Below, piece after piece: positions 299 to 62,950 of a stretch of DNA of 64,000 nucleotides (position 1 is its first letter; the number at the start of each line of letters is the position of its first letter). The notes below the pieces were generated by a model that was not told the origin of the DNA, ran no database searches, and worked only from the letters and a program-made list of their open reading frames with translations. The position numbers were made by a program, and so were the translations under genes. The stretch is from a bacterium (GTDB lineage Bacteria > Patescibacteriota > Minisyncoccia > Phycocordibacterales > DATDWN01), in NCBI GenBank assembly GCA_037134875.1, contig JBAXLH010000001.1, positions 5,322-69,321 on the forward strand. Direction: 5' to 3'.

Positions 299-402
299 TA
301 TGTTGTGTTTGGAAACTCGTTTTGTTGGGTACTTTTTTGAAAACAGAGTTTCTATTTTACTAATTTATAATTTTTGATTCAGAAACTTTTTCTCACTGTC
401 TA

Positions 403-482
403 CTTTTCCGAAAACGAAATAAATTTCTGCTGAAATTTTTTCTCGTGCTCAGCCCGTCGGCCTGCGCAATGTTTCGGAAAAG
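403..482. repeat. Palindromic intergenic element, family R3 (core ...ttcttcgtgctcRgcccgtcggcctgYgcaatg... between the arms cttttccgaaaac / gtttcggaaaag)
   Basis: The conserved core is shared with copies at 1421-1494, 19366-19459 and 33080-33215 (reverse orientation). The flanking inverted arms are unique to this copy. Confidence 0.6.
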
Positions 483-505
483 CATCCAGTTCAACAAGTT
501 TCTGA

Positions 506-1535: not shown

Positions 1536-2519
1536 ATGAAAACAGATATTCTCGCCATTGGCGATGTTGTTATAGATGCTTTTATTAGACTCAAAGAAGC
1601 AGAGGTTCGGTGTGACGAACACAAGCAAAATTGCAAGCTGTGTTTGAGTTTTGCTGACAAAGTTCCCTACGAATCCGTTGAAATTTGCAAAGCTGTGGGA
1701 AATTCTGCAAATGCATCTGTATCAGCTGCACGTCTCGGTCTCAATTCTGCACTACTCTCATACGTTGGAAACGACCGAAATGGTGATGAATGTGTTGAAG
1801 AACTCCAAAAAAACAATGTGCACACAGAATATGTCAGAAAAGAGGATGGAAAAGTGACCAACTATCACTATGTGCTCTGGTATGATGTTGATCGCACGAT
1901 TTTGGTCAAGCACGAAACATACAACTACTCTCTCGGCAACATAGAAGCTCCAAAATGGATCTATTTGAGCTCTATGGGAGAAAATTCTCTGGAATTCCAT
2001 ATGGAAATTGCTGACTTTTTGGACAAAAACCCTGACACAAAACTCGTGTTCCAACCTGGAACATTTCAAATGAAATTTGGCAAAGACGCACTCGCACGAA
2101 TCTACAAAAAAACTGATATTTTTTTCTGCAACGTTGAGGAGTCACAGAGAATTTTGGGACGCAGTGACACACGAGATCTCCCAACACTTATGAAAGAAAT
2201 GATGGCTCTTGGCCCAAAAATAGTTTGTATTACAGACGGTATCGATGGTGCATATGCATACGACGGCACACATATGTGGTTTATGTCTGTGTATCCGCAC
2301 GTACCATTCGAGAGAACGGGCGCAGGTGACGCTTTTGCATCCACTGTTACCTCGGCACTTCTTCTTGGCAAAACACTGGAGGAAGCAATGATGTGGGGCC
2401 CGATCAACTCGATGTCAGTTGTCCAAAAAGTCGGCGCACAAAAAGGCCTCCTCACTCGCGAACGACTCGAGGAATATCTTCGCAATGCTCCAACAGACTA
2501 CAAACCAAGATTATTGTAA
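1536..2519 (+). CDS. PfkB-family carbohydrate kinase (ribokinase-like)
   Basis: The start is taken at MKTDILAIGDVVID, because the upstream part of ORF 1377.. is translated repeat sequence. The C-terminal motif is GAGDAF. Confidence 0.8.
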   Translation: MKTDILAIGDVVIDAFIRLKEAEVRCDEHKQNCKLCLSFADKVPYESVEICKAVGNSANASVSAARLGLNSALLSYVGNDRNGDECVEELQKNNVHTEYVRKEDGKVTNYHYVLWYDVDRTILVKHETYNYSLGNIEAPKWIYLSSMGENSLEFHMEIADFLDKNPDTKLVFQPGTFQMKFGKDALARIYKKTDIFFCNVEESQRILGRSDTRDLPTLMKEMMALGPKIVCITDGIDGAYAYDGTHMWFMSVYPHVPFERTGAGDAFASTVTSALLLGKTLEEAMMWGPINSMSVVQKVGAQKGLLTRERLEEYLRNAPTDYKPRLL

Positions 2520-2522
2520 TTA

Positions 2523-2657
2523 TCTGAATCAAAACTCGTCGAAAACGTATTCTTTTTTGAGGCTTCGCAAGCGCGACGGCGCGAGACTTGAGAAATTTGC
2601 CAGCAGGCAAATATTCGTACTCAAAAAAGAATATGTTGAGTAAGAGTTTTGATTCAG
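2523..2657. repeat. Palindromic element, family R1 (core gaggcttcgcaRgcg...gagacttgagaaatttgccagcaggcaaatattcgtactc)
   Basis: The ~70-nt core is shared with 19741-19870 and 28829-28958. The copy-specific inverted arms are tctgaatcaaaactcgtcgaaaacgtattctttttt / aaaaaagaatatgttgagtaagagttttgattcaga. It lies between convergent genes. Confidence 0.65.
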
Positions 2658-2667
2658 ATTTTGATAT

Positions 2668-3660
2668 TTATTTTTTTCGAGATATTGCTTTTTTGCAAGC
2701 CGAGAGAATGTGTGATTCGCCCATTTCGTAGTATTCCAAAAGTTCTTCGGGTGTACCAGACTGACCAAACTGATCTTTGACTCCGATAAATTCAATCGGT
2801 GTCGGTGACTGTGCGGACAAGAATTCAGCTATCGCACTTCCGAGACCTCCGGCGATTTGATGTTCCTCTACTGTTACAATCGCTCCAACGTTTTTTGCAA
2901 TTTTGAGCAAAGCTTCGGCATCAAGCGGTTTGACTGTTGCAAAATTCCAGACCTGTACTTTGACACCTTCTTTGCTGAGTTTTTCTGCAACTAACAGAGA
3001 TTTGTGCACGAGCGCACCGATTGCAACTATTGCAACATCGGCTTTTTGTTCTCCATAAAACATTTGTGCTTTGCCAAATTCAAATGGAGTATCTTTTGTT
3101 GTAATGATTGGCGTTTTTTCGCGTGCAAGTCTAATGTATACTGGCTTGCCAAGCTCTGCCGCGACGAGCGTGACTCTGTGTGCCTCGAGCGAGTCACATG
3201 GACAAATAACATTCATTCGGGGGAGAATTCGTGTGATAGCAATATCTTCAATCGCCTGATGTGTTCCTCCATCTGGTCCTACCGACACGCCGGCGTGAGA
3301 GCCAACAACTACTGCCGAACATTCGTTGTAACAAATCGTAGTGCGAATCTGCTCCCAATTTCGTCCGGGAGAAAACATTGCATAACTTGTAAAGAAAGGA
3401 ATTTTTCCCATCGCTGCCATACCACTCGCCACACTCGCCAGATTTTGTTCGGCAATACCGATCTGGACAAATCGCTCTGGAAATTTATTTTTAAATAAAT
3501 TCATCTGCGTGGATACAGTGAGGTCAGCACAGAGTCCAACAACCTTTGGATTTTTCTCGCCAGCCTCGAGAAGCCCGCGACCAAAACCCATTCGAATTGG
3601 TTCCTGCTCAATATCTTTGTCCCACAACTTTGGATTTAATTTTTGATTTTGATTTATCAT
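2668..3660 (-). CDS. Transketolase, C-terminal (pyrimidine-binding) subunit
   Basis: 330 aa, with the split-transketolase architecture typical of small genomes. The sequence is collinear with the transketolase C-terminal half (…GPDGGTHQAIEDIA…). Confidence 0.9.
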   Translation of the reverse strand: MINQNQKLNPKLWDKDIEQEPIRMGFGRGLLEAGEKNPKVVGLCADLTVSTQMNLFKNKFPERFVQIGIAEQNLASVASGMAAMGKIPFFTSYAMFSPGRNWEQIRTTICYNECSAVVVGSHAGVSVGPDGGTHQAIEDIAITRILPRMNVICPCDSLEAHRVTLVAAELGKPVYIRLAREKTPIITTKDTPFEFGKAQMFYGEQKADVAIVAIGALVHKSLLVAEKLSKEGVKVQVWNFATVKPLDAEALLKIAKNVGAIVTVEEHQIAGGLGSAIAEFLSAQSPTPIEFIGVKDQFGQSGTPEELLEYYEMGESHILSACKKAISRKK

Positions 3661-6511: not shown

Positions 6512-7543
6512 TTACATCAAAAATGATGCAGTCTTTACGACATGCTCCATAAGCGAATAAGTGTACCCCATTTCATTATCATACCATGCCATAACTTTGA
6601 CAAGATTGCCGTCGATAACTCGCGTGAGTCCGAGATCCGCAATTGACGCATAGTGACTACCCAGAATATCCGAAGAAACGATTGGGTCTTTGGTCACAGT
6701 AAATATTTTTGCCCAATGTGGATCCTGTGATGCTTTCTCCAGAATACTGTTTACTTCCTCAACTGTTGTATTTCTTTTTGAAATAAATGTAATGTCAGCA
6801 ATCGAGCCCGCAATGATAGGAACTCGAATTGAAAGTCCGTCGAACTTGCCCTTGAGATCTGTAATTACTTTTGTGGTTGCTTTTGCTGCACCAGTAGATG
6901 TTGGAATCATATTTTGTGCTGCAGCTCTTCCCTCTTTGAAATCTTTTTTGTTTGGACCATCGACAATACTCTGACTTGCGGTATACCCATGCACAGTATT
7001 GAGAACAGCTTTTTCAATACCGATTGTTTGATTCAAAATCTGAATAACTGGACTACCGGCATTTGTCGTACACGATGCGTTTGATGTCACTATTCTGTCT
7101 TTGAGTGTGTCGCAGTTGATACCCATAAGGATTGTGGCATCGGACTCTGATCGTGGTTCGTCTTTGACCGGAGCTGTAATCACGACTTTTTTCGCCCCTG
7201 CGGTAATGTGTACACTAGCTTTTTCAAATGACGTAAATGCACCCGTGGATTCAACCACAACATGAATACCCAATGTTCCCCATGGAAGTTGTGTTGGATC
7301 CTTTTCTGACAAGAACAAAATTTCTCGTCCATTTACTGATATCTTTTTCTTGTCCTCTGACACTGTAACAGATGAAAATTTCTGCCCATATGCAGTATCG
7401 TATTTTATAAGATAGGCGATATTGTCAATGTCTCCCAAATCATTGATTGCAACAACCTCCACATCTTCTCGAGTTTCAGCAATACGCAAAAATGCTCTGC
7501 CTATACGACCAGCACCATTGATAGCAACTTTTATTTTTGACAT
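6512..7543 (-). CDS. gap: Glyceraldehyde-3-phosphate dehydrogenase
   Basis: The N-terminal motif is KVAINGAGRIGRAF and the active site is SNASCTTNA. The start is taken at MSKIKVA. Confidence 0.9.
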   Translation of the reverse strand: MSKIKVAINGAGRIGRAFLRIAETREDVEVVAINDLGDIDNIAYLIKYDTAYGQKFSSVTVSEDKKKISVNGREILFLSEKDPTQLPWGTLGIHVVVESTGAFTSFEKASVHITAGAKKVVITAPVKDEPRSESDATILMGINCDTLKDRIVTSNASCTTNAGSPVIQILNQTIGIEKAVLNTVHGYTASQSIVDGPNKKDFKEGRAAAQNMIPTSTGAAKATTKVITDLKGKFDGLSIRVPIIAGSIADITFISKRNTTVEEVNSILEKASQDPHWAKIFTVTKDPIVSSDILGSHYASIADLGLTRVIDGNLVKVMAWYDNEMGYTYSLMEHVVKTASFLM

Positions 7544-7631
7544 TTTTTTGAGATTAGTAAGTAACATTAAAATTATAGCAATTTATATATAAAAAGAAAA
7601 ATCTCTTTGCGAGATTTTTCCACATAGTCAA

Positions 7632-7793
7632 AATTAAATCAGACTTCCTTGTACTTTTCGAAAAGCAATCTGTCTAGTCCTGGTGGACTAGCGAACTTCT
7701 CGTCGCTCAAGAAAACAATGTCGGATTACCTCGTTGTTTTCTAAGCTCCTGCGAAAGGCTTTTCTCAAAATACAAGGAAATCTGATTTAAAAA
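7632..7793. repeat. Palindromic element, family R4 (core aatctRtctagYcctgStggRctagcgaacttctcgtcgctcaagaaaacaatgtcggWttacctcSttgttttctaagctcctgcgaaagg)
   Basis: The core is shared with 62791-62950. The inner hairpin tagtcc-tgg-tggacta here corresponds to tagccc-tgc-tgggcta there, a compensatory double change. The arms aaattaaatcagacttccttgta… / …tacaaggaaatctgatttaaaaatt are copy-specific. Confidence 0.65.
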
Positions 7794-7810: not shown

Positions 7811-10156
7811 TTATTTACTCTTCGATGCTTCAGTGACAACATCATCAATCGTACACACTCCGCCGGCACAGGCCATTTCGGCTTTTTGTTCGAGCTCGTC
7901 TGTTGCTTCGTAACTCACAATTTTCGAGAAATCAATATGTTCAAATCGTTTGAGCATTTCCTCGTATGTCTTTTTGTCTATTGTTTCGTATGGTGCAAGC
8001 TGGTAGATATGGTTGTCTCGAGGCAAAAATGTCAGTCCTCCGACAATATCCCAATGTTTAAACAACCAGTGTGCAACCTCGATCCATTCATCCTCACCGA
8101 CTGAAATAGTTGTCGATGGGTTGTGTTCTGTATAGTTTTCTTTCAAAACTTTCCAGTATTCGAGCTGTTCGATAGCAGACTGATCGTCTTTGAATATTGA
8201 TCCATTTGGTGCTTTTACTGGGAAATCAAGTACATACGTCGTAGCAGATTCTGCTGGCTGACCAACCTCGGGATGAAATGGTACGCCTTGGTCACGGAGC
8301 ATTTTGAAAAGTGAATCTGTCGAGGCAATACGAACCCGTCGAATGTAGTACGCGCTGTGTCGTGGATGCATTCCAGACGACGAATCCACTGTTTGTGAAA
8401 GATTTCCTGATGGTTTAACACAGGTAATACAAGTTGACTCACTGATACCAAATCGTTTTGCATACAATTTGTTGACTTTGATTGCCTCCGCACGGAGTTT
8501 TCGCAACACTTCTGGTTTTCGTGACACAGGAGAATCCCATTGACCAGTTACAGACACGCCGAGGAGTCGTTCTGCTTCACAATTGGTTTTCCATTCTTTT
8601 GAAAGATATGGAAAATGTGTGAGTGTAGACTGATATGTGCCGAGGATTGTTGCGACGCGAATTTTCTTGAGAAGCGAAGCCTCCGTATCATCAGCCCGAG
8701 CCACCACCTCGGATAGATTACAAAACTGTTTTGACTGCAAAATAATTTCTCCACATGGGTTTGTTCCAACAGGTTTGACGATTGTGCCACCCTCTACAAT
8801 TCCCTCTTCCTCCCAAAGTTTGATACGTCTCGAAGGCAAAGTTTTCATAAGTCCGCCACGATTGAAAATACCTCGCTCTCCTGCGTTTGACTTGATGAGA
8901 GCCACCCATTCATCGAGAAACTCTGTACTCGTTGGTTTTGTCTCGTACACCGCCGAGTTGTTGGCGAGAGATCGCTGGGGATTTGTCATCCAGAACTGAC
9001 CCTTTTTAGCATCGCGAATCTCGTTGTCATCGAGGTCAGAGAGTGAAATCATCGCGCTTCGACGCACACCTCCAGCCACGACAATTTCGCCGATTTTGCA
9101 GAGAATGTCATACGCATCAATATTTTCGAGTCGCTTACCCTGTCTCGACAAAAATTTACTCTTTGTAAATGTCAAAAGTTGTCGGAGTGGCTCTGGTCCG
9201 CTCGACTTGCCTCCCATTGTTTTGAGTCGTGCTCCAGCTGGTCGGAGAAGTGAGTAGTCAAAATCAACATCAACACCACTTGCCCATGCCTCCATACCAT
9301 GCAAAAATGCATCACACCAACCCTCTTTGCTATCTGCAATAACATATGTAGGAAGTTTTTTGCCAGTCTGTCTGTGAATTTGTGGAAGTTTCTGAATGTT
9401 CTCACTCTGTACTGCCCAACCAGCACCCGTTCCACACATTGAGATATACATCACCTCGGAAAAATCTCGGAATTTTTCTGGCGCAACAAACGAACAGTTG
9501 TAGGCAGCGACGTTTGTAGTACGAGCAGCTGTTCCAGCAAACTGGAGAAGACGCATTGATGGCATTGCTCCCTGATCCAAAATCGCCTCGCGGACTTCTT
9601 TGTATTCTGCCGGTTTGAGTTTGTCTCCCAAATTTTCTTTCATAAAGGAAACATACCGATCTACTGTCTCAACCCATGTCTCGCGACGATTTTCCTCTGG
9701 AATCCATTTTGAATATGTTCGATAGTACACAAACTCGCCAAGTGGGTTTTTGAAATGACGTTTGCTCTCCTCTGCAAGCTTTTTGACCTTTTCTGGTACC
9801 TCAATTCCCTTGTATCTCAGTTTGTTTCGCTCTTCTCTGTACAAAATATAGGCTTTTGCTGTGGCAACATACTCTGAAAGCATAAGCTCTTTTTCAACCG
9901 AGTTCTGAATTCCCTCCACCGTTGGCACAAACGTGGGATGTTTCTTGGAGATGCGCACAAGGTCGGCAAAAACCTTGTTTGCAACCATTTCAGCCTCCTC
10001 GAGAGACCCTTCATTTGAGGCAAGCATTGCTTTGTTGATGGCAATGACGATTCGCTCAACATCAAAAGGCACAAGTTCACCGTTTCTTTTCTCTACTTTT
10101 TTTATCAAACCACTCTTTTTCTCTACTTTTTCGGTTTTTTTTGTGTCTTTTGCCAT
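7811..10156 (-). CDS. nrdJ: Class II (adenosylcobalamin-dependent) ribonucleotide reductase with an N-terminal ATP-cone
   Basis: 781 aa. It has an ATP-cone-like N-terminus, a large RNR barrel with conserved Cys/Asn/Glu regions, and a C-terminal CxxC pair (ACAGGVC), a monomeric class II RNR pattern. Confidence 0.85.
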   Translation of the reverse strand: MAKDTKKTEKVEKKSGLIKKVEKRNGELVPFDVERIVIAINKAMLASNEGSLEEAEMVANKVFADLVRISKKHPTFVPTVEGIQNSVEKELMLSEYVATAKAYILYREERNKLRYKGIEVPEKVKKLAEESKRHFKNPLGEFVYYRTYSKWIPEENRRETWVETVDRYVSFMKENLGDKLKPAEYKEVREAILDQGAMPSMRLLQFAGTAARTTNVAAYNCSFVAPEKFRDFSEVMYISMCGTGAGWAVQSENIQKLPQIHRQTGKKLPTYVIADSKEGWCDAFLHGMEAWASGVDVDFDYSLLRPAGARLKTMGGKSSGPEPLRQLLTFTKSKFLSRQGKRLENIDAYDILCKIGEIVVAGGVRRSAMISLSDLDDNEIRDAKKGQFWMTNPQRSLANNSAVYETKPTSTEFLDEWVALIKSNAGERGIFNRGGLMKTLPSRRIKLWEEEGIVEGGTIVKPVGTNPCGEIILQSKQFCNLSEVVARADDTEASLLKKIRVATILGTYQSTLTHFPYLSKEWKTNCEAERLLGVSVTGQWDSPVSRKPEVLRKLRAEAIKVNKLYAKRFGISESTCITCVKPSGNLSQTVDSSSGMHPRHSAYYIRRVRIASTDSLFKMLRDQGVPFHPEVGQPAESATTYVLDFPVKAPNGSIFKDDQSAIEQLEYWKVLKENYTEHNPSTTISVGEDEWIEVAHWLFKHWDIVGGLTFLPRDNHIYQLAPYETIDKKTYEEMLKRFEHIDFSKIVSYEATDELEQKAEMACAGGVCTIDDVVTEASKSK

Positions 10157-10840: not shown

Positions 10841-10983
10841 GATTATTTATCTAATGTTTGAAACTTTCAGATTTGAGTAAGGTCGCGTATAAAATAAAAA
10901 TCAGACTGGAGACGTATATTGATACGTTGACAGCCTGATTTTTATTTTAGACGATGAGATTACTCAAATCTGGAAGTTTTTAA

Positions 10984-13550: not shown

Positions 13551-13602
13551 ATTGCAGTAGTCTACCAGAATTAAATAAAAAATCAACTAAGAAGCGACTG
13601 CA

Positions 13603-13754
13603 CCTCCTCCTGCCATACTCATTTTCAGAGCAACCTTACATTTCCCTGCGGAAATGTAAGGCCGTCCTCGGTCTGAACTTGTCAAGAAGAAATGCCTTGA
13701 CAAGTCCGGCTTCAGACCTGCGGGGTCTCTGAAAATGAGTATGTCAGGAGGAGG
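13603..13754. repeat. Palindromic element, family R2b (related to R2; core contains cttgtcaag…cttgacaagtc)
   Basis: The arms cctcctcctgccatactcattttcagag / ctctgaaaatgagtatgtcaggaggagg are 28 nt with 1 mismatch. It lies immediately adjacent to an R2 copy. Confidence 0.55.
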
Positions 13755-13792
13755 TACATCCAATACTCTGACTATTCAACGGTCGGTTAAAG

Positions 13793-13957
13793 ACCGAAGT
13801 TACTTGCAAATGTTTTTTGAGCCCCCGCAGGCCGTGAGCTGGTCTTGTCAACGACCCGAGCACAGCGAGGGCTCTTGACAAGTCACGGCCGAGGACAGCC
13901 AATCAGTTCGCAGGAACTGATTGGGAAGCTCAAAAAACATTTGCAAGTAACTTCGGT
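13793..13957. repeat. Palindromic element, family R2 (core gcatccgcaggccgtgaRcWtggtcttgtcaaYgacccgagcacagcgagRgctcttgacaagtcacggccgaggac)
   Basis: The core is shared with 15935-16102 and 62097-62270. The perfect 29-nt arms accgaagttacttgcaaatgttttttgagc / gctcaaaaaacatttgcaagtaacttcggt are copy-specific. Confidence 0.7.
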
Positions 13958-13980
13958 TTTTCAACTACCAATTTTTTCCG

Positions 13981-15934: not shown

Positions 15935-16102
15935 AATTATAAAACACCTTTTGAATTTTTCGGAGCATCCGCAGGCCGTGAACATGGTCTTGTCAACGAC
16001 CCGAGCACAGCGAGGGCTCTTGACAAGTCACGGCCGAGGACCGAATGAGCTTTTCGCCGGAAAAGCGAATGTATCCGAAAAATTCAAAAGGTGTTTTATA
16101 AT
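15935..16102. repeat. Palindromic element, family R2
   Basis: The conserved R2 core has the copy-specific arms aattataaaacaccttttgaatttttcgga / tccgaaaaattcaaaaggtgttttataatt. The right arm overlaps the stop codon of the 16103.. gene. Confidence 0.7.
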
Positions 16103-18835
16103 TTACTTGCGATATTTCTCCTGAATCTGCCTCTCAATCTCTTCCCTATCCCCTCCGTACGTGAGATACGATAATTGTTTGAGCGAATCAATAATAGCTG
16201 GATCGCCTTTTGGTGGAAATGGTTCTTTGATGTTGAATGCTTTTTGTGAGGTACCGTTCATAAGCATTTTTACATAGGCATTCAAGTTATCAATATTCAT
16301 AAGATCTTTTGCGGTAAACACCGGAGAAAATTGTTTTTCTAAATATTCTGCGTCCTCGGCACTCACTCGAAAAGAAACAATCGAGCCAACGTTACCAAAC
16401 ACTGCATCGCGGATATTTTCCTGAAGTTGGGCAATAAACTGATGTGCAACAGTCAGTGACAGTTTGTATTTTCGTGCTTCAGAGAGAATGGATGAGATTG
16501 AATCCGTCGTAATGTTTTGGAACTCGTCGATGTAGAGATAAAACGGCGCAAAATCTTTTCCGTAGGAGTCCACACGAGAGAGAGCCGCCATCAGAATTTT
16601 GCCGACAAGAATGAGACCGATGAGATTGGCATTTATATCTCCCAATTTACCTTTGGCCAAATTGACGAGAAGTATTTTTTTGTTATCCATTATGTCGCGA
16701 AAATTGAAAGATGATTTTTCCTGTGCCACGATAGGTCGCATAACTTCGTTTGCAAGAAATACGTCAAATTTATTCACAATATATGGAACAATATTTGCAA
16801 GCGATGACTCTCCGCCAGCTTTCTCAGCAATTTCTTTCCAAAACTCTACAATGACAGGATTTTTGCATCTGGAAACTTTCAAATCCCTAAATGTTTTGTT
16901 GGACAACACCCGAGACACATCCAAAAGTGTACAGCCGGTCTCTGGATCTTCAACAACAAGCATCGCAGCATTTCTAAAATATTGCTGGAAAGCCGGTCCC
17001 ATTGACTCTGGAACATTACCATACAGTTTTTGGAATATACTCAAAAGCTCGTTGACCACAAATGTTTTCTGCTCCGGAAACTTTGGATCATACTCAAGCA
17101 TATTGAGGGCCATTGGACGCTCGGTGTAGCTTGGATCAAAATAAATCACATCTTTGTAACGGTCTTTTGGAATATTTGCCAAAATATCAATAATATCTGT
17201 ACCGTGTGGGTCAATAAAACAACATCCATTACCTCTCTCGATATCCTGAATAATAAGATTTTTGAGAAGAACAGTTTTTCCAGCACCAGTTTGTCCAATG
17301 ACATATAAATGTCTGAGTCGGTCCTGATCCTGCATAAATATTTTTGTCTCAACGTTTCGATAGTTGTTGACACCAATAAATGTACCATCTTCTCCCATAC
17401 CGAGCGGTGCTGGCGCAGAAACAGCCTGATTTTGCTTGAGCTGTGGTGATGGTGAAAGATCTGTTGTGTTGAAATGTAGTAGTGATGTTATTTCGTGCAG
17501 ATTGAGAGGCAATAGCTCGTCTGGATTGTAACTCCTGAAAGAAAAATTTCTGAACATTTTTTGCAGAGCACCTTTTTCAAGACGTTTCCACTCGAGTGAG
17601 TTGGAGACAGGATCGGAAAATTGATTGAATGATGACTCGATACTTTTCAAAATCCGCTCGGAATCCGGCCGACTCTGTGTCGAGACAACGATACGCACAT
17701 TTGTTGCTACTATTTCGCTGGCGATTTTTTGTTTAATTTTTTGAATTGCATCATTGTCCACCGGCTTCTTTTCTTCACCCTCTTTTGGTAATGGTTTGAA
17801 AATTTCTTTGACTGTTTTTGCAAAATCTCCAACAAATGTTTCTGGCAGATTGACCGCGTCTTTTGTTGGCACACCTTTTTCTATTTGCTCAATTGCATAT
17901 TTGTATTTTTTGGTGAAATAGTCCCCTTTTGGAGAGAAAACAATTTGAATTGCAGCTCCTTCGCCATCTTTTGCAATCTTTGAAAAACTGTTGATAACAA
18001 CATTCATTGGATCGTAGTCAAATGACTCGTATGTTTTGAATGGATACACTGGCTTTTCTTTTGTGGTGAGATACGAACCGAGCGAAACACCTTCTCCATT
18101 GAAAATATTGTAGTCATTTGTCGCCTCGACAACTCGCGCTGTCGAGAAAATAGAGACAATGTGTTTCTCAAAAAGCTGTTTGAATTCATCGGGCACCGCA
18201 ACATAAAATACAAATTGGTTACTGCCATTTGCGTTTGCAATTTCGAGTGCAATATAATTTTCTTTTTCTTTTTTTGAAACAACCGAAAGCATTCCAGCAT
18301 AAAACTGCTCCATACTGGAAATCACTTCTTTGAGTCCTTTTTGTTGTTTTTCTTTTTCTTCTTCAAGAAGCACAACCTCATATAAAGTCATTCCAACACC
18401 GCGGAAATCTCTCTCGGAAAGGTTGAGATCATTTGGCTTGTATCCACTTTTTACAAATTGCACCAAAAAACGATGAAAATCATCATCGAGATGAGGGTCT
18501 TTCATTTCAGACAAAACAGAAAGTGCGTTTTTCACACCTTTTTCATTGAGTATTCCGAGGAGCTCCTCCATCTTTTTGTCGTGTCGCTCCGGAGCGAGAT
18601 TCAAAACAATTGACTCAGCATCAGCCTTTGAAAGTGCATACGTATCCGAGAGAACATCTTTTGATAATGTGTCTTTATATTTTGAAATTTGTTCGCGAAC
18701 AACGGTGTCGGTATCCACTTTTTGATCTCGTTCGTGAAGCTGTTTTTCTTTTTCGGCGATTTTACCACGCAAGAAATTTATTTCCTCTTCGGGTGATGTA
18801 AAGCGAGAAGTATTTTCGCTCAAAACTTTTTCCAT
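16103..18835 (-). CDS. VirD4/TraG-like (type IV coupling-protein / DUF87-type) P-loop ATPase
   Basis: 910 aa. The Walker A motif is GQTGAGKTV. The C-terminal …YLYIDEFQNITT…LSLTVAHQFIAQL… resembles the TraD/TraG C-terminal region. The family assignment is tentative. Confidence 0.55.
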   Translation of the reverse strand: MEKVLSENTSRFTSPEEEINFLRGKIAEKEKQLHERDQKVDTDTVVREQISKYKDTLSKDVLSDTYALSKADAESIVLNLAPERHDKKMEELLGILNEKGVKNALSVLSEMKDPHLDDDFHRFLVQFVKSGYKPNDLNLSERDFRGVGMTLYEVVLLEEEKEKQQKGLKEVISSMEQFYAGMLSVVSKKEKENYIALEIANANGSNQFVFYVAVPDEFKQLFEKHIVSIFSTARVVEATNDYNIFNGEGVSLGSYLTTKEKPVYPFKTYESFDYDPMNVVINSFSKIAKDGEGAAIQIVFSPKGDYFTKKYKYAIEQIEKGVPTKDAVNLPETFVGDFAKTVKEIFKPLPKEGEEKKPVDNDAIQKIKQKIASEIVATNVRIVVSTQSRPDSERILKSIESSFNQFSDPVSNSLEWKRLEKGALQKMFRNFSFRSYNPDELLPLNLHEITSLLHFNTTDLSPSPQLKQNQAVSAPAPLGMGEDGTFIGVNNYRNVETKIFMQDQDRLRHLYVIGQTGAGKTVLLKNLIIQDIERGNGCCFIDPHGTDIIDILANIPKDRYKDVIYFDPSYTERPMALNMLEYDPKFPEQKTFVVNELLSIFQKLYGNVPESMGPAFQQYFRNAAMLVVEDPETGCTLLDVSRVLSNKTFRDLKVSRCKNPVIVEFWKEIAEKAGGESSLANIVPYIVNKFDVFLANEVMRPIVAQEKSSFNFRDIMDNKKILLVNLAKGKLGDINANLIGLILVGKILMAALSRVDSYGKDFAPFYLYIDEFQNITTDSISSILSEARKYKLSLTVAHQFIAQLQENIRDAVFGNVGSIVSFRVSAEDAEYLEKQFSPVFTAKDLMNIDNLNAYVKMLMNGTSQKAFNIKEPFPPKGDPAIIDSLKQLSYLTYGGDREEIERQIQEKYRK

Positions 18836-18913: not shown

Positions 18914-19726
18914 TCACTTCCTCAAATAATACAACCTCATCTCTTCTGGAAATCGCTCAATGGAATATCGTAGAGCGGTGCGTGGAATATGGGAGTAGTG
19001 TTTGTCCAAAAATTTTCGCAATGTCCCCTCGTCTTTTTTGCCGACTTCACGGAGCATCCAACCAACAGCTTTGTGGATCAGATCATGTGTGTCAGAAAGT
19101 AACATCTCTGCGATCTTGAGTGTGTCACCAAAATCGCCCTGACGTATGAAAGTGAGCGTTGAAATAATAGAGATTCTCTTTTTCCACAAATCTTTCGACT
19201 CAGCAAATGTGTACAAAATATCTCGAGGTTTATCCAGCAGATATGTTCCGACAATCTGCGGAGCTGACAAATCCACCAAATCCCAATTGTTTATGTATTT
19301 TGTGTTTTTAATGTACAGGTCAAAAATTTGTTTTTGAACTCTTAACATACCAGATTTCTGTCTCAACATATGCTGGTCTGAAAACAGAATATTCGCCTGC
19401 TGGCGAATTTCTTCGTGCTCGGCCCGTCGGCCTGTGCAATGTTTCAGACCAGCATATGTCTTCGACGAAATCTGATACTTTTGAATCAAAATCAACAGGG
19501 CAACCATTCGACATTCATGAATTTCTGATTTGAGTAGCTTTACAACATCCGCAAATGGTAAATCGACAAATTGTTTGGCGACGTTGCGCTGATCTGGCAT
19601 TACAATTCCCAAAAAAACATCTCCTTCGCCATACTCCCCTTTGCCAGTCTTAAAAAACCGAGAAAGTATTTTGGCTTTCCCTTTACTCGACTTCTTTTTC
19701 AATTTTGAAATTAGGTTATTGTACAT
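18914..19726 (-). CDS. DNA alkylation repair protein (AlkD/AlkC-like HEAT-repeat glycosylase) carrying an in-frame repeat-element insertion
   Basis: The N-terminus is FFKTGKGEYGEGDVFLGI and the C-terminus is WMLREVGKK…RTALRYSIERF. The reading frame continues through the R3 element at 19366-19459. Confidence 0.7.
   Translation of the reverse strand: MYNNLISKLKKKSSKGKAKILSRFFKTGKGEYGEGDVFLGIVMPDQRNVAKQFVDLPFADVVKLLKSEIHECRMVALLILIQKYQISSKTYAGLKHCTGRRAEHEEIRQQANILFSDQHMLRQKSGMLRVQKQIFDLYIKNTKYINNWDLVDLSAPQIVGTYLLDKPRDILYTFAESKDLWKKRISIISTLTFIRQGDFGDTLKIAEMLLSDTHDLIHKAVGWMLREVGKKDEGTLRKFLDKHYSHIPRTALRYSIERFPEEMRLYYLRK
19366..19459. repeat. Palindromic element, family R3, inserted in frame within the alkD-like CDS
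   Basis: The arms are acatatgctggtctgaaaac / gtttcagaccagcatatgt and the core is …ttcttcgtgctcggcccgtcggcctgtgcaatg. It is translated as …HCTGRRAEHEEIRQQANILFSDQHMLRQKSGM…. Confidence 0.65.
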
Positions 19727-19740
19727 GGTGGTAGTATTTC

Positions 19741-19870
19741 TCTTTAATTTCGTTGACTCAAAATTTTTTTTGAGGCTTCGCAGGCGGGTAGCCGAGACTT
19801 GAGAAATTTGCCAGCAGGCAAATATTCGTACTCAAAAAAAGTTTTGAGGAAAAAGAAATTAAAGAGAAAT
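19741..19870. repeat. Palindromic element, family R1
   Basis: The R1 core has the copy-specific arms tctttaatttcgttgactcaaaattttttttgag / ctcaaaaaaagttttgaggaaaaagaaattaaaga. Confidence 0.65.
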
Positions 19871-36303: not shown

Positions 36304-36505
36304 AGGTTTTTAAAAGTTTGCGAGTTTTGTAAATTAAAACTACGGCGAGATCATTTTCTTTTCTGAATTATAGTTTTACGACCCTTGTCTCGGCACAGTA
36401 ATTTTGGAGCACGCGATAAGTCCTGCTGGACTTTCGCTCAATCTCGCGCCGTCGCGCTCCGAAGTCTCCAAAATCACTGCGCCTTCGACGTGGTCGTAAA
36501 TCTTT

Positions 36506-44757: not shown

Positions 44758-44819
44758 ATAGACAGTATAAACGATTTTTGTTATCTTATAAATGTGTTTG
44801 AGTAAAAACACAAACATTC

Positions 44820-44842
44820 CGCGGTAGCTCAGTGGTAGAGTG
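44820..44842 (+). pseudogene. Truncated duplicate of the tRNA-Asn 5' end (23 nt identical: tccgcggtagctcagtggtagag)
   Basis: It is identical to 45013-45035. The downstream sequence lacks a T-arm or 3' half. Confidence 0.55.
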
Positions 44843-45012
44843 AGATTGGGGTGGGACCCAATCGCAAGACCGGAGCGCGACGGCGCGAGGTGGGGTCGCA
44901 GGATTTTTCAACAGAAAAATACCTGTGACGAGCCTGTGTGGTATATAACATTTTTGAACCCCTCTTGATTACTATTTTGAGAATAATAATCAAGACAAGT
45001 TTTGAAATATAT

Positions 45013-45366
45013 TCCGCGGTAGCTCAGTGGTAGAGCGATCGCCTGTAAAGTGCTTGCAGCTTCCTAAAGTAATTTAGGCTGAAAAATGAGGTGAATTCGG
45101 GGAAACCCCACGTGGGCAATCCCGAGCCAAGCCACTTTCAAGTTTTGATTTTTTATATTTAGAAATTAAAACTTGAAAGTGGAAGGTGTAGAGACTATCT
45201 CGAAAGAGAGTAGTTATTATTTTTCAAATAAAATAATCACGAAGCGCCCCACATCCCACTTGTTTATCAAAAATAGATAAAGGATGATGATATAGTCCAT
45301 ACCAAAGGCAACTTTGGAATCAATGTAAGCGATTGGTCGTAGGTTCGATCCCTACCCGCGGAGCCA
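45013..45366 (+). tRNA. tRNA-Asn (GUU) interrupted by a group I intron in the anticodon loop; CCA encoded
   Basis: The 5' exon TCCGCGGTAGCTCAGTGGTAGAGCGATCGCCTGT spans 45013-45046. The 3' exon TAAGCGATTGGTCGTAGGTTCGATCCCTACCCGCGGAG+CCA spans 45326-45366. The splice satisfies the group I rule (5' exon ends in U, intron ends in G). The alternative reading is Tyr(GUA) if the boundaries are shifted by 3 nt. Confidence 0.6.
45047..45325 (+). ncRNA. Group I self-splicing intron (no ORF)
   Basis: About 279 nt. It contains the conserved group I core element GATGATATAGTCC (consensus AAGAUAUAGUCC, P7/S region) near 45283-45298 and ends in G. Confidence 0.65.
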
Positions 45367-45744
45367 AAAAGTTTAAACCCCGAAAGGGGTTTTTACTTTT
45401 CTTGGCTCCGTGGAGCAGAACAGGGTTCTGCGTGTAGGGATCGAACAGTTTGTCGGTTTACAAGTTTAGCAAAACTTGTCGACAAACTGGTGGCCAGGAT
45501 TTTCTGTTTTGACGAAAACAGAAAATCTGAGGCCGATACCCCTACCCGCGGAGCCAAAAAGTTTAAACCCCGAAAGGGGTTTTTACTTTTCTTGGCTCCG
45601 TGGAGCAGAACAGGGTTCTGCGTGTAGGGATCGAACAGTTTGTCGGTTTACAAGTTTAGCAAAACTTGTCGACAAACTGGTGGCCAGGATTTTCTGTTTT
45701 GACGAAAACAGAAAATCTGAGGCCGATACCCCTACCCGCGGAGC
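45367..45744. repeat. Tandem direct repeat, 2 x 190 nt; each unit ends in a copy of the tRNA-Asn 3' end (cctacccgcggagcc) and begins with its inverted copy (ggctccgtggag)
   Basis: The two units are identical (45367-45556 and 45557-45744). Each has a terminator hairpin aaaccccgaaaggggttttt, an inverted degenerate T-arm-like segment (gtagggatcgaac) and two long hairpins. Confidence 0.8.
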
Positions 45745-62075: not shown

Positions 62076-62096
62076 GGTTTTTAATTTGTTAGTTTT

Positions 62097-62270
62097 TCAA
62101 AATTTAATTGAGACTACATCCTTTTTGGAGCATCCGCAGGCCGTGAGCATGGTCTTGTCAATGACCCGAGCACAGCGAGAGCTCTTGACAAGTCACGGCC
62201 GAGGACCGAATGAGTTTTTCGCTGGAAAAGCGAGTGTATCTGAAAAGGATGTGGTTTCGATTAAATTTTG
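62097..62270. repeat. Palindromic element, family R2, filling the spacer between the hydrogenase small- and large-subunit genes
   Basis: The R2 core has the arms caaaatttaattgagactacatcc / ggatgtggtttcgattaaattttg. Confidence 0.65.
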
Positions 62271-62273
62271 AAA

Positions 62274-62790: not shown

Positions 62791-62950
62791 CAAAAACCGA
62801 TAGGAGCATATCTTTCACGGAGCAATCTATCTAGCCCTGCTGGGCTAGCGAACTTCTCGTCGCTCAAGAAAACAATGTCGGTTTACCTCCTTGTTTTCTA
62901 AGCTCCTGCGAAAGGCTCCGGAAAAGATATGCTCCTATCGGTTTTTTAAA
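62791..62950. repeat. Palindromic element, family R4
   Basis: The R4 core has the arms caaaaaccgataggagcatatctttcacggagc / gctccggaaaagatatgctcctatcggtttttt. Confidence 0.65.

Follow-up and report, generated by a model that had tools for sequence, protein, structure and literature searches.

Patescibacteria (the candidate phyla radiation, CPR) account for much of bacterial diversity and have genomes of ~1 Mb, and to our knowledge almost no non-coding RNA biology has been described in them beyond rRNA introns. In other bacteria, the Correia (NEMIS) elements of Neisseria and the enterobacterial repetitive intergenic consensus (ERIC) sequences are short, co-transcribed repeats whose long RNA hairpins undergo cleavage by RNase III or RNase E, which alters mRNA stability. 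The RNase III signals of phage T7 (R1.1 type) are simple intercistronic hairpins of ~60 nt whose double-stranded stems carry a small internal loop, and bacterial hammerhead and twister ribozymes are multi-copy and not tied to specific genes. Rickettsia palindromic elements (RPEs) are interspersed, hairpin-forming repeats of 100-150 nt, found as several families in a reduced genome. RPEs lie between genes and occasionally in frame within genes, are retained across species and have no known mobilising enzyme (see the review PMC10969869). Repetitive extragenic palindromic (REP) sequences and REPINs are extragenic palindromes enriched after gene ends, for which roles in termination and mRNA stabilisation have been proposed (PMC3337134, PMC3733652). 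Here we describe R4, an element that occurs twice in a 64,000-nt stretch of the Patescibacteria contig JBAXLH010000001.1 (the window, meaning this whole stretch). R4 is a ~155-base intergenic element with a three-way junction and is present in >100 copies across ultra-small Patescibacteria genomes. It belongs with the known interspersed structured repeats and orphan structured RNA motifs, and is unusual in that it has an invariant branched core, a free closing stem and no terminal repeats or target duplications. Full-text literature searches returned no description of such elements in CPR/Patescibacteria.

Copies of R4 and their conserved fold

The two window copies, A and B (Table 1), share a 97-nt core (7664-7760 and 62821-62917) that is 94% identical. 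Within the window, the only two occurrences of a 34-mer taken from the core are those in the R4 copies, against 0 expected by chance. Arms flanking the core form inverted repeats of 33 nt (88% complementary) in copy A and 35 nt (91% complementary) in copy B. An earlier note had placed the copies at 7632-7793 and 62791-62950 and had read a paired substitution in a core hairpin, here called P3, as a sign that secondary structure is under selection, suggesting transcribed small RNAs or structured DNA recombination sites. Both copies stand, and their limits narrow to about 7636-7788 and 62792-62946. On the plus strand, P3 reads ctagTcc-tggt-ggActag in copy A (7674-7691) and ctagCcc-tgct-ggGctag in copy B (62831-62848). 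The double change between T7678-A7687 and the homologous C-G pair is a true compensatory change that preserves the 7-bp stem; the loop has 4 nt (tggt/tgct) and not the 3 nt originally drawn. A single compensatory pair from two copies only proves little by itself. No variation between strains was seen: over 300 nt, the sequence is identical in four further assemblies from this population.

Further copies were retrieved in two scans. The first used an exact pattern anchored on the junction sequences and covered one genome per GTDB species; it returned 24 loci, all in Patescibacteria metagenome-assembled genomes (MAGs) labelled Nomurabacteria, Paceibacterota, Minisyncoccia or 'Saccharibacteria'. 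The second covered metagenome contigs with a pattern anchored on the lower stem of hairpin P2 only, and returned at least 118 loci with 115 unique sequences, three of which were chance pattern matches lacking the junction motifs. These three were the ones that had seemed to lie within open reading frames (ORFs). Hence no R4 copy was found inside a gene, and intron-like excision, which we had considered, was dropped because all R4 copies are intergenic. The viral contigs of IMG/VR held no copy.

RNAalifold predicted 50 pairs from 26 copies, 31 of them with double changes. Paired cells amounted to 94.5% in this set, compared with 76.1 ± 0.8% after shuffling, and none of 500 shuffles scored as high; the covariation score was 0.49 against 0.16 for shuffled alignments. 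When partners were slid by 1-3 columns, only 36-50% of cells were paired. Mutual information across 115 copies recovered the helices P1, P1a, P2 and P3 and gave no convincing pseudoknot. The earlier note had named unpaired variation in additional copies as the observation that would count against it; the flagged P3 pair was C-G in 17, G-C in 6 and U-A in 1 of the 26 copies, which came from 20+ genomes, and was unpaired in 2. With strong covariation in every helix across >100 copies, selection on secondary structure is borne out.

The closing stem P1 has a narrow length distribution (median 30 bp) and double changes in 19 of its 21 pairs. Its inner 10-16 bp are typical of subfamilies and contain recurrent G.A mismatches, and its outer part is specific to each copy; the former description of the arms as copy-specific thus holds for the outer part but not for the inner 10-16 nt, which are common within subfamilies. 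Counting from the junction, purine-purine mismatches recur at position 6 or positions 8-9. P1a has 4 bp and was invariantly UUUC/GAAG in the first copy set. In the metagenome set, where the pattern left P1a unconstrained, it switches from UUUC/GAAG to UUGC/GCAG (G-C in 64 copies, U-A in 47), a change that is invisible within the window. P1a and P2 are separated by a purine-rich internal loop of near-invariant sequence, GCAGGA/GACGA; judged by inspection, its bases could form a stack in which G.A/A.G pairs surround a G-C pair. The lower stem of P2 (GCUUAGAAAA/UUUUCUUGAGC) contains a U.G pair and a bulged U and is essentially invariant, though it was unconstrained by the first-scan pattern; the apical pairs of P2 covary, and its tip is a G-UANU-C loop. 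P3 is hypervariable, with double changes in 6 of its 7 pairs and 98.4% of cells paired. Individual pairs of P1 and P3 take three to five Watson-Crick or wobble types. One MAG carries three R4 copies with homologous arms whose differences are compensated. Roughly 45 positions of R4 are invariant across many genomes, and this conservation is comparable in scale to that of riboswitch aptamers or ribozyme cores. We also compared the junction by inspection with a kink-turn and with a hammerhead junction loop, and the motifs do not fit.

A covariance model built from the R4 alignment (R1) was searched over 520 kb. It scored intact copies at 80-136 bits and sister families at 21-38 bits, with nothing between. 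Just two extra intact copies appeared in the flanks of known ones, and R4 is therefore present in a handful of copies per genome. None of the 4227 families of Rfam 15 matched R4, and a gathering-threshold scan of the whole window returned a group I intron and tRNA only. E-value scans with copy A and three sister elements gave only generic long-hairpin (miRNA precursor) or chance matches far below threshold.

Folding strand and gene boundaries

The hairpin had originally been read on the plus strand. In a strand-neutral alignment of the P1 arms, G.U combinations outnumber A.C by 88 to 26 (p = 5e-9), and therefore one specific strand is the folding strand, which in the window is the minus strand. 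Copy A folds at -69.6 kcal/mol on the minus strand (z -10.3) and at -60.9 kcal/mol on the plus strand, copy B at -83.4 kcal/mol (z -11.2) and -77.4 kcal/mol. The minus strand is thus 6-9 kcal/mol more stable in these copies, and both strands lie far beyond shuffled sequence (z about -10 to -11). Two C:A mismatches in P1 of copy A on the plus strand read as G.U on the minus strand. The G.U:A.C ratio in P1 is 59:11 in elements that are sense to one neighbouring gene or more, compared with 12:9 in those antisense to both, which suggests that P1 is maintained in whichever transcript crosses the element. The element's own sense strand folds better whatever the context, and does so in 15 of the 18 copies placed antisense. 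Capped tetraloops, tandem G.A mismatches and the invariant U.G pairs are typical of RNA, and we rate RNA as more likely than single-stranded DNA to be the form that folds.

Orientation was counted for about 110 copies, 84 of which had both neighbours called. Between co-directional genes, 18 copies are sense and 19 antisense, that is, there is no orientation bias; a sense bias apparent by eye in the 26 copies of the GTDB set was gone in the larger set. Convergent spacers are over-represented (28 of the 84), and 19 of the 84 copies lie in divergent spacers. The neighbours at 26+ loci outside the window are unrelated housekeeping genes, including mutM, spoU, atpD/atpC, trmD, mnmA, the S20 gene and mreB. 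Gene ends facing the element lie 18-32 nt from the core, on either side, with stop codons typically at 22-28 nt, so that P1 extends to the stop codon; for gene starts, the distance from the core is 25-80 nt. The outer 8 nt of the arms contain 51% A on the 5' side and 50% T on the 3' side (background 33% and 30%). No target-site duplication was detected in 72 copies, direct repeats at the P1 ends matching the shuffled expectation, and no split or ORF-carrying copy appeared next to the 150 loci whose flanks were examined, nor anywhere in about 930 kb of flanking DNA. At orthologous loci, whose flanking proteins are 59-80% identical, the element is kept with its junction intact and its stem changes compensated.

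The window carries genes typical of Patescibacteria/CPR housekeeping, among them those for GAPDH, class II ribonucleotide reductase (RNR), NiFe hydrogenase, split transketolase, MraZ/MraW, MreB and RRF, and the four genes flanking copies A and B are all on the minus strand. Copy A lies 20 nt past the stop codon (7811) of the RNR gene (7811-10156, minus strand). Downstream of it come a canonical terminator after 15 nt, a TATAAT box and then GAPDH; the position of the terminator places copy A in the 3' untranslated region (UTR) of the RNR gene. For copy B, the two flanking genes encode an FAD oxidoreductase and a protein resembling a hydrogenase small subunit.

GAPDH homologues with 80-84% identity were traced to their contigs (L150 to L153). 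L150 has class II RNR followed by GAPDH in the same synteny, separated by a 98-nt spacer that holds only a canonical terminator and a TATAAT promoter. This short terminator is unrelated to the R4 arms, and a terminator of the same type is intact downstream of the window R4. The RNR-GAPDH spacers of L151 and L153 likewise contain a terminator and a promoter and no element. That of L152 contains a hybrid-family element (2341-2421, minus strand) in the orientation opposite to the window R4; it stands where the relatives have their terminator and is accompanied by no separate one. Because the spacer is empty in relatives or filled by a different family, the site has been occupied independently, and the window R4 is an insertion relative to these relatives. 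The window GAPDH ORF (6512-7567, minus strand) encodes 351 amino acids, compared with about 342 in its homologues, which align from its second Met; its true start is probably at 7540 (MSKIKVAING...).

Sister elements and other features of the window

At least 15 elements of one architecture lie in the 64-kb window, where they occupy about 2.2 kb (about 3.5%; Table 1). All share a layout in which a long closing stem, copy-specific in its outer part, is combined with a short helix, a GCA/GA-type loop and one or two hairpins, and they split into several sequence families of 90-190 nt. The S copies at 19736-19870 and 28829-28957 have cores identical at 56 of 56 positions, identical inner arms (UUUUUUGAG/CUCAAAAAA) and unrelated outer arms. 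An 'R4b' family keeps the UUAGAAAAC...GUUUUCUUGA stem and has an enlarged P2 tip. The L152 element and another on contig L091 (11726-11806) join an R4-type P3 and junction (CUAG...CUAG-ACAGCGA) to the short GGCC-GACG-GGCC hairpin of the S family. These hybrids and R4b are intermediates that link the families.

One sister element (19350-19475) lies in frame and free of stop codons within an AlkD ORF (18914-19726, minus strand), between two conserved helices of an otherwise complete DNA glycosylase. It accounts for 35-39 extra residues relative to >100 homologues of 227-264 amino acids, mostly about 232-234. Several origins of the arms were considered and rejected. For captured phage 'spacers', the single 17-mer match is at chance level, there is no 21-mer match, and R4 is absent from IMG/VR. 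Copying from elsewhere in the genome finds no second match in the window. Insertion of the core into the loop of a pre-existing long hairpin or terminator does not agree with the rarity of empty long hairpins in the window, or with an RNR-GAPDH terminator that is unrelated to the arms. One native arm with the other as its inverted copy fits less well than core plus both arms with an AlkD insert of 35-39 residues, although this is not decisive.

The elements at 13599-13758 (minus strand) and 13781-13969 (plus strand) are separated by 22 nt and stand head to head. In the former, the 3' arm holds a Shine-Dalgarno-like GGAGGAGG ahead of the start of the L25 gene (13586), and the 5' arm holds the complementary CCUCCUCC; the stem would therefore mask the ribosome-binding site of L25. 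Adjoining the element at 15935-16103, in an otherwise housekeeping neighbourhood, is a gene for a 910-residue TraG/TrwB-like type IV coupling protein (16103-18835, minus strand).

Two further regions of the window stood out. Between 29700 and 33000, direct repeats of 177-250 nt lie on either side of an ORF (30902-32443, minus strand, 513 amino acids) with a weak match to Pfam Transposase_20 of the IS110 family (26 bits). The region contains many repeated hairpin modules with 'gttcgaaagaac'-type loops and has no Rfam match; it could be an IS110-family element with a bridge-like structured RNA, or a large ornate RNA. Elsewhere, a tRNA is split by a group I intron (45042-45318; RF00028, 70 bits) into a 5' half at 45011-45038 and a 3' half at about 45343-45365. 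The tRNA 5' half recurs in near-identical form at 44816-44843, and a perfect tandem duplication of 190 nt comprises 45350-45539 and 45540-45729.

Table 1. Coordinates of the R4 copies, their parts and the sister elements in the window
Feature	Position	Strand	Basis
R4 copy A, whole element	7636..7788	-	minus-strand fold; covariance model R1, 122 bits
Copy A P1 5' arm (AAAUCAGAUUUCCUUGUAUUUUGAGAAAAGC)	7758..7788	-	pairs with 7636-7666
Copy A P1a 5' strand, UUUC	7753..7756	-	pairs with GAAG 7696-7699; family covariation
Copy A internal loop, 5' strand, GCAGGA	7747..7752	-	near-invariant in alignments
Copy A P2 hairpin; lower stem GCUUAGAAAA/UUUUCUUGAGC, U.G pair, bulged U, UANU apical loop	7705..7746	-	
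Copy A internal loop, 3' strand, GACGA	7700..7704	-	alignments
Copy A P1a 3' strand, GAAG	7696..7699	-	alignments
Copy A P1a-P3 junction, UUCG	7692..7695	-	alignments
Copy A P3 hairpin, CUAGUCC-ACCA-GGACUAG (flagged hairpin)	7674..7691	-	6 of 7 pairs with double changes
Copy A P3-P1 junction, ACAGAUU	7667..7673	-	AYAGAUU conserved
Copy A P1 3' arm	7636..7666	-	inverted repeat, fold
Canonical intrinsic terminator, 15 nt downstream of copy A	7595..7621	-	sequence
R4 copy B, whole element	62792..62946	-	minus-strand fold; covariance model R1, 122.9 bits
Copy B P1 5' arm	62915..62946	-	inverted repeat, fold
Copy B P2 hairpin	62862..62903	-	fold, alignment
Copy B P3 hairpin, CUAGCCC-AGCA-GGGCUAG	62831..62848	-	alignment
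Copy B P1 3' arm	62792..62823	-	inverted repeat, fold
S' type element	391..485	-	repeat match
S type element	2507..2674	+	repeat match, inverted arms
Element of similar architecture	10861..10979		inverted arms
CCGCAGG...CCGAGGAC type element	13599..13758	-	inverted arms
D4 type element	13781..13969	+	repeat match, inverted arms
D4 type element, arms 30/30 perfect	15935..16103	+	inverted arms
S' type element, in frame in AlkD-like gene 18914-19726	19350..19475	-	homologue comparison
S type element	19736..19870	+	repeat match, inverted arms
S type element, core identical to 19736-19870	28829..28957	+	repeat match
Sister element, arms 32/32 perfect	33088..33206	+	inverted arms
S-like element	36392..36483	-	
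UCGCAGG, long P2, CCGAGGAC element, without P3	39390..39571	+	inverted arms
D4 type element	62095..62273	+	repeat match, inverted arms

Possible functions and comparison with known systems

The superfamily is best read as a set of Patescibacteria-specific interspersed intergenic elements. We see roughly an even chance that they are uncatalogued, insertion-derived structured RNA repeats that are kept by purifying selection and act at gene boundaries. Such elements would arise and spread as insertions, like MITEs (transposable elements of the miniature inverted-repeat type) or RPEs, would be transcribed inside neighbouring mRNAs (in the 3' UTR, between cistrons or in the 5' UTR), and would be retained because the element RNA acts at gene boundaries. 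The ~30-bp P1 could serve as a double-stranded-RNA processing, 3'-end or terminator-like module, and the invariant junction could be the docking site of a conserved trans-acting factor. Several points weigh against this explanation. RNA status is read from the sequence. The absent orientation bias is unexpected if a sense transcript from host promoters is required, and it is equally compatible with an element that works at the DNA level or is purely selfish. Copy A is followed by its own terminator and is not needed for termination there, and a plain processing or terminator hairpin leaves roughly 45 invariant junction and P2 positions unexplained. No partner protein or mobilising enzyme was identified for R4. 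Finally, exact-pattern retrieval favours intact copies, and the gene calls were crude (greedy) ORF calls.

R4 might instead be a mobile element or recombination site that works as single-stranded DNA, its folded strand (for example at a replication fork) being recognised by a strand-specific HUH/Y1-type or other enzyme that copies or moves the element, with the core as recognition site. An orientation unbiased relative to genes, the better folding of the sense strand in 15 of the 18 copies antisense to both neighbours, the differences in presence and absence at syntenic sites and the sister element inserted in frame in a gene would all suit such a mode of spread, and G.T is the best-tolerated mismatch in DNA too. 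However, no transposase is tied to any copy, the flanks of the 150 loci hold no split or ORF-carrying version, and the sole transposase-like ORF of the window is the weak IS110-family match, whose flanks are unrelated. Target-site duplications and conserved terminal repeats are missing, the invariant U.G, tandem G.A and capped tetraloops are typical of RNA, the P1 bias follows the direction of neighbouring transcription, and orthologous copies are retained with compensation; on balance we consider a DNA element unlikely. It is also rather improbable that R4 encodes a free-standing small RNA, in which P1 would be a processing stem like those of rRNA precursors and RNase III would release a ~100-nt three-way-junction RNA that acts in trans in an abundant ribonucleoprotein (RNP). 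The ultra-conserved junction, a P1 constrained solely for pairing and a ~30-bp length, and the absence of intermediate-score copies agree with this idea. Yet the architecture is common to many families of distinct sequence, 15 elements lying within 64 kb, which is odd for a single RNP; antisense placement in operons (19 of 37 co-directional cases) would need dedicated promoters, of which none is conserved, and a sister copy lies in frame within a coding gene.

An undescribed class of self-cleaving ribozyme, serving to process polycistronic transcripts, would explain a small three-way junction with many invariant unpaired nucleotides, and the multi-copy, gene-independent occurrence resembles that of bacterial hammerhead and twister ribozymes. 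We nevertheless hold it to be very unlikely: no known ribozyme family matches at E values up to 10 with permissive filters, the hammerhead motifs CUGANGA, GAAA and UH are absent on inspection, and the sequence yields no sign of a cleavage site. In the window, each R4 copy lies in sense orientation upstream of a gene for an NAD(P)-linked enzyme (GAPDH or hydrogenase), as would be expected of a riboswitch or gene-specific leader such as a redox-cofactor sensor. We give this hardly any credence, since the neighbours at 26+ other loci are unrelated, the elements occur in both orientations and often in convergent spacers, a terminator and a promoter separate copy A from GAPDH, and a 30-bp P1 could not serve as a ligand-controlled switch helix. 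Decaying selfish palindromes with unselected structure are just as hard to credit. The search patterns did fix parts of the sequence, and copies within a genome are related, so covariation could be an artefact of either; but P1, the P2 tip and P3 lay outside the first-scan pattern and P1a outside the second, the slid-partner controls keep relatedness yet fall to 36-50% paired, and the P3 and P1 pairs take three to five pair types. We count this explanation as refuted.

If the elements are functional RNA modules, they would represent a previously unknown, widespread layer of control at mRNA boundaries or an unknown RNP in Patescibacteria. If they are selfish, they would be a new type of bacterial repeat, with a conserved structured centre and a free closing stem and without terminal repeats or target duplication. 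A bolder proposal, which we think improbable, is that the core is an active RNA or a lineage-specific RNP scaffold. It might represent a ribozyme class or an RNA-recognising enzyme system not seen before, or a new kind of mobile element that is propagated through a folded single-stranded intermediate and gains a fresh locus-specific ~30-bp closing stem at each site. Were this proposal true, R4 and its sister families would amount to several percent of the genome in some Patescibacteria, and mRNA boundaries would be shaped genome-wide.

Among described repeats, RPEs share with the superfamily the hairpin-forming interspersed repeat that is tolerated in frame in a coding gene, here represented by the sister element at 19350-19475. 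RPE copies are alike along their full length, whereas the R4 core is near-invariant and its closing stem free in sequence; R4 also shows explicit covariation in a multi-helix three-way junction, and its sequences are unrelated to RPEs. The Correia and ERIC repeats offer the closest model for the action of a 30-bp P1 at gene boundaries. They have conserved terminal inverted repeats and, in Correia, a TA target duplication, while R4 has copy-specific outer arms, no duplication and a conserved structured centre. Like REP sequences, R4 is palindromic and placed at gene ends, but REPs are 20-40 nt long, carry a GTAG/CGTC tag and are linked to RAYT transposases; R4 has about 155 nt, is branched and lacks such a tag, and no RAYT-like gene was found among the window ORFs. 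MITEs have conserved terminal inverted repeats and target-site duplications; in R4, sharing within subfamilies is confined to the innermost 10-16 nt of each arm, the outer arms differ entirely from copy to copy, and the 72 copies show no duplication. No split or ORF-carrying copy that would point to an autonomous insertion sequence with the same ends was seen in the flanking DNA covered (about 930 kb).

Integron attC sites have conserved R''/L''-L'/R' ends, a variable centre and co-oriented cassettes near intI, whereas R4 has a conserved centre, variable ends and mixed orientation; no integrase was found among the window ORFs, and R4-type elements are scattered among housekeeping genes. Retron msr-msd RNAs are flanked by a1/a2 inverted repeats and followed directly by a reverse transcriptase gene, and the genes downstream of R4 encode GAPDH, a hydrogenase subunit and others, with no reverse transcriptase. 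No match at E values up to 10 was obtained for the hammerhead, twister, twister-sister, pistol, hatchet, hairpin and HDV-like ribozymes. An intrinsic terminator is a short GC-rich hairpin followed directly by a U tract at a gene end. The elements abut stop codons, the P1 ends are A-rich on the 5' side and U-rich on the 3' side, and the L152 element stands in the place of a terminator; against this, the stem of R4 has 30 bp with a 97-nt insert, and copy A has a separate canonical terminator behind it. The T7 RNase III signals resemble R4 in that P1 has recurrent purine-purine mismatches 6-9 bp from the junction; they have no conserved branched core, and cleavage of R4 by RNase III is hypothetical. 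R4 agrees in definition with orphan structured RNA motifs (the 'Gene; sRNA' type and cis-regulatory candidates of Rfam), which like R4 are recognised by conserved sequence together with covarying helices. R4 lies outside all Rfam 15 families, and its alignment and covariance model R1 are enough to define a new RNA family.

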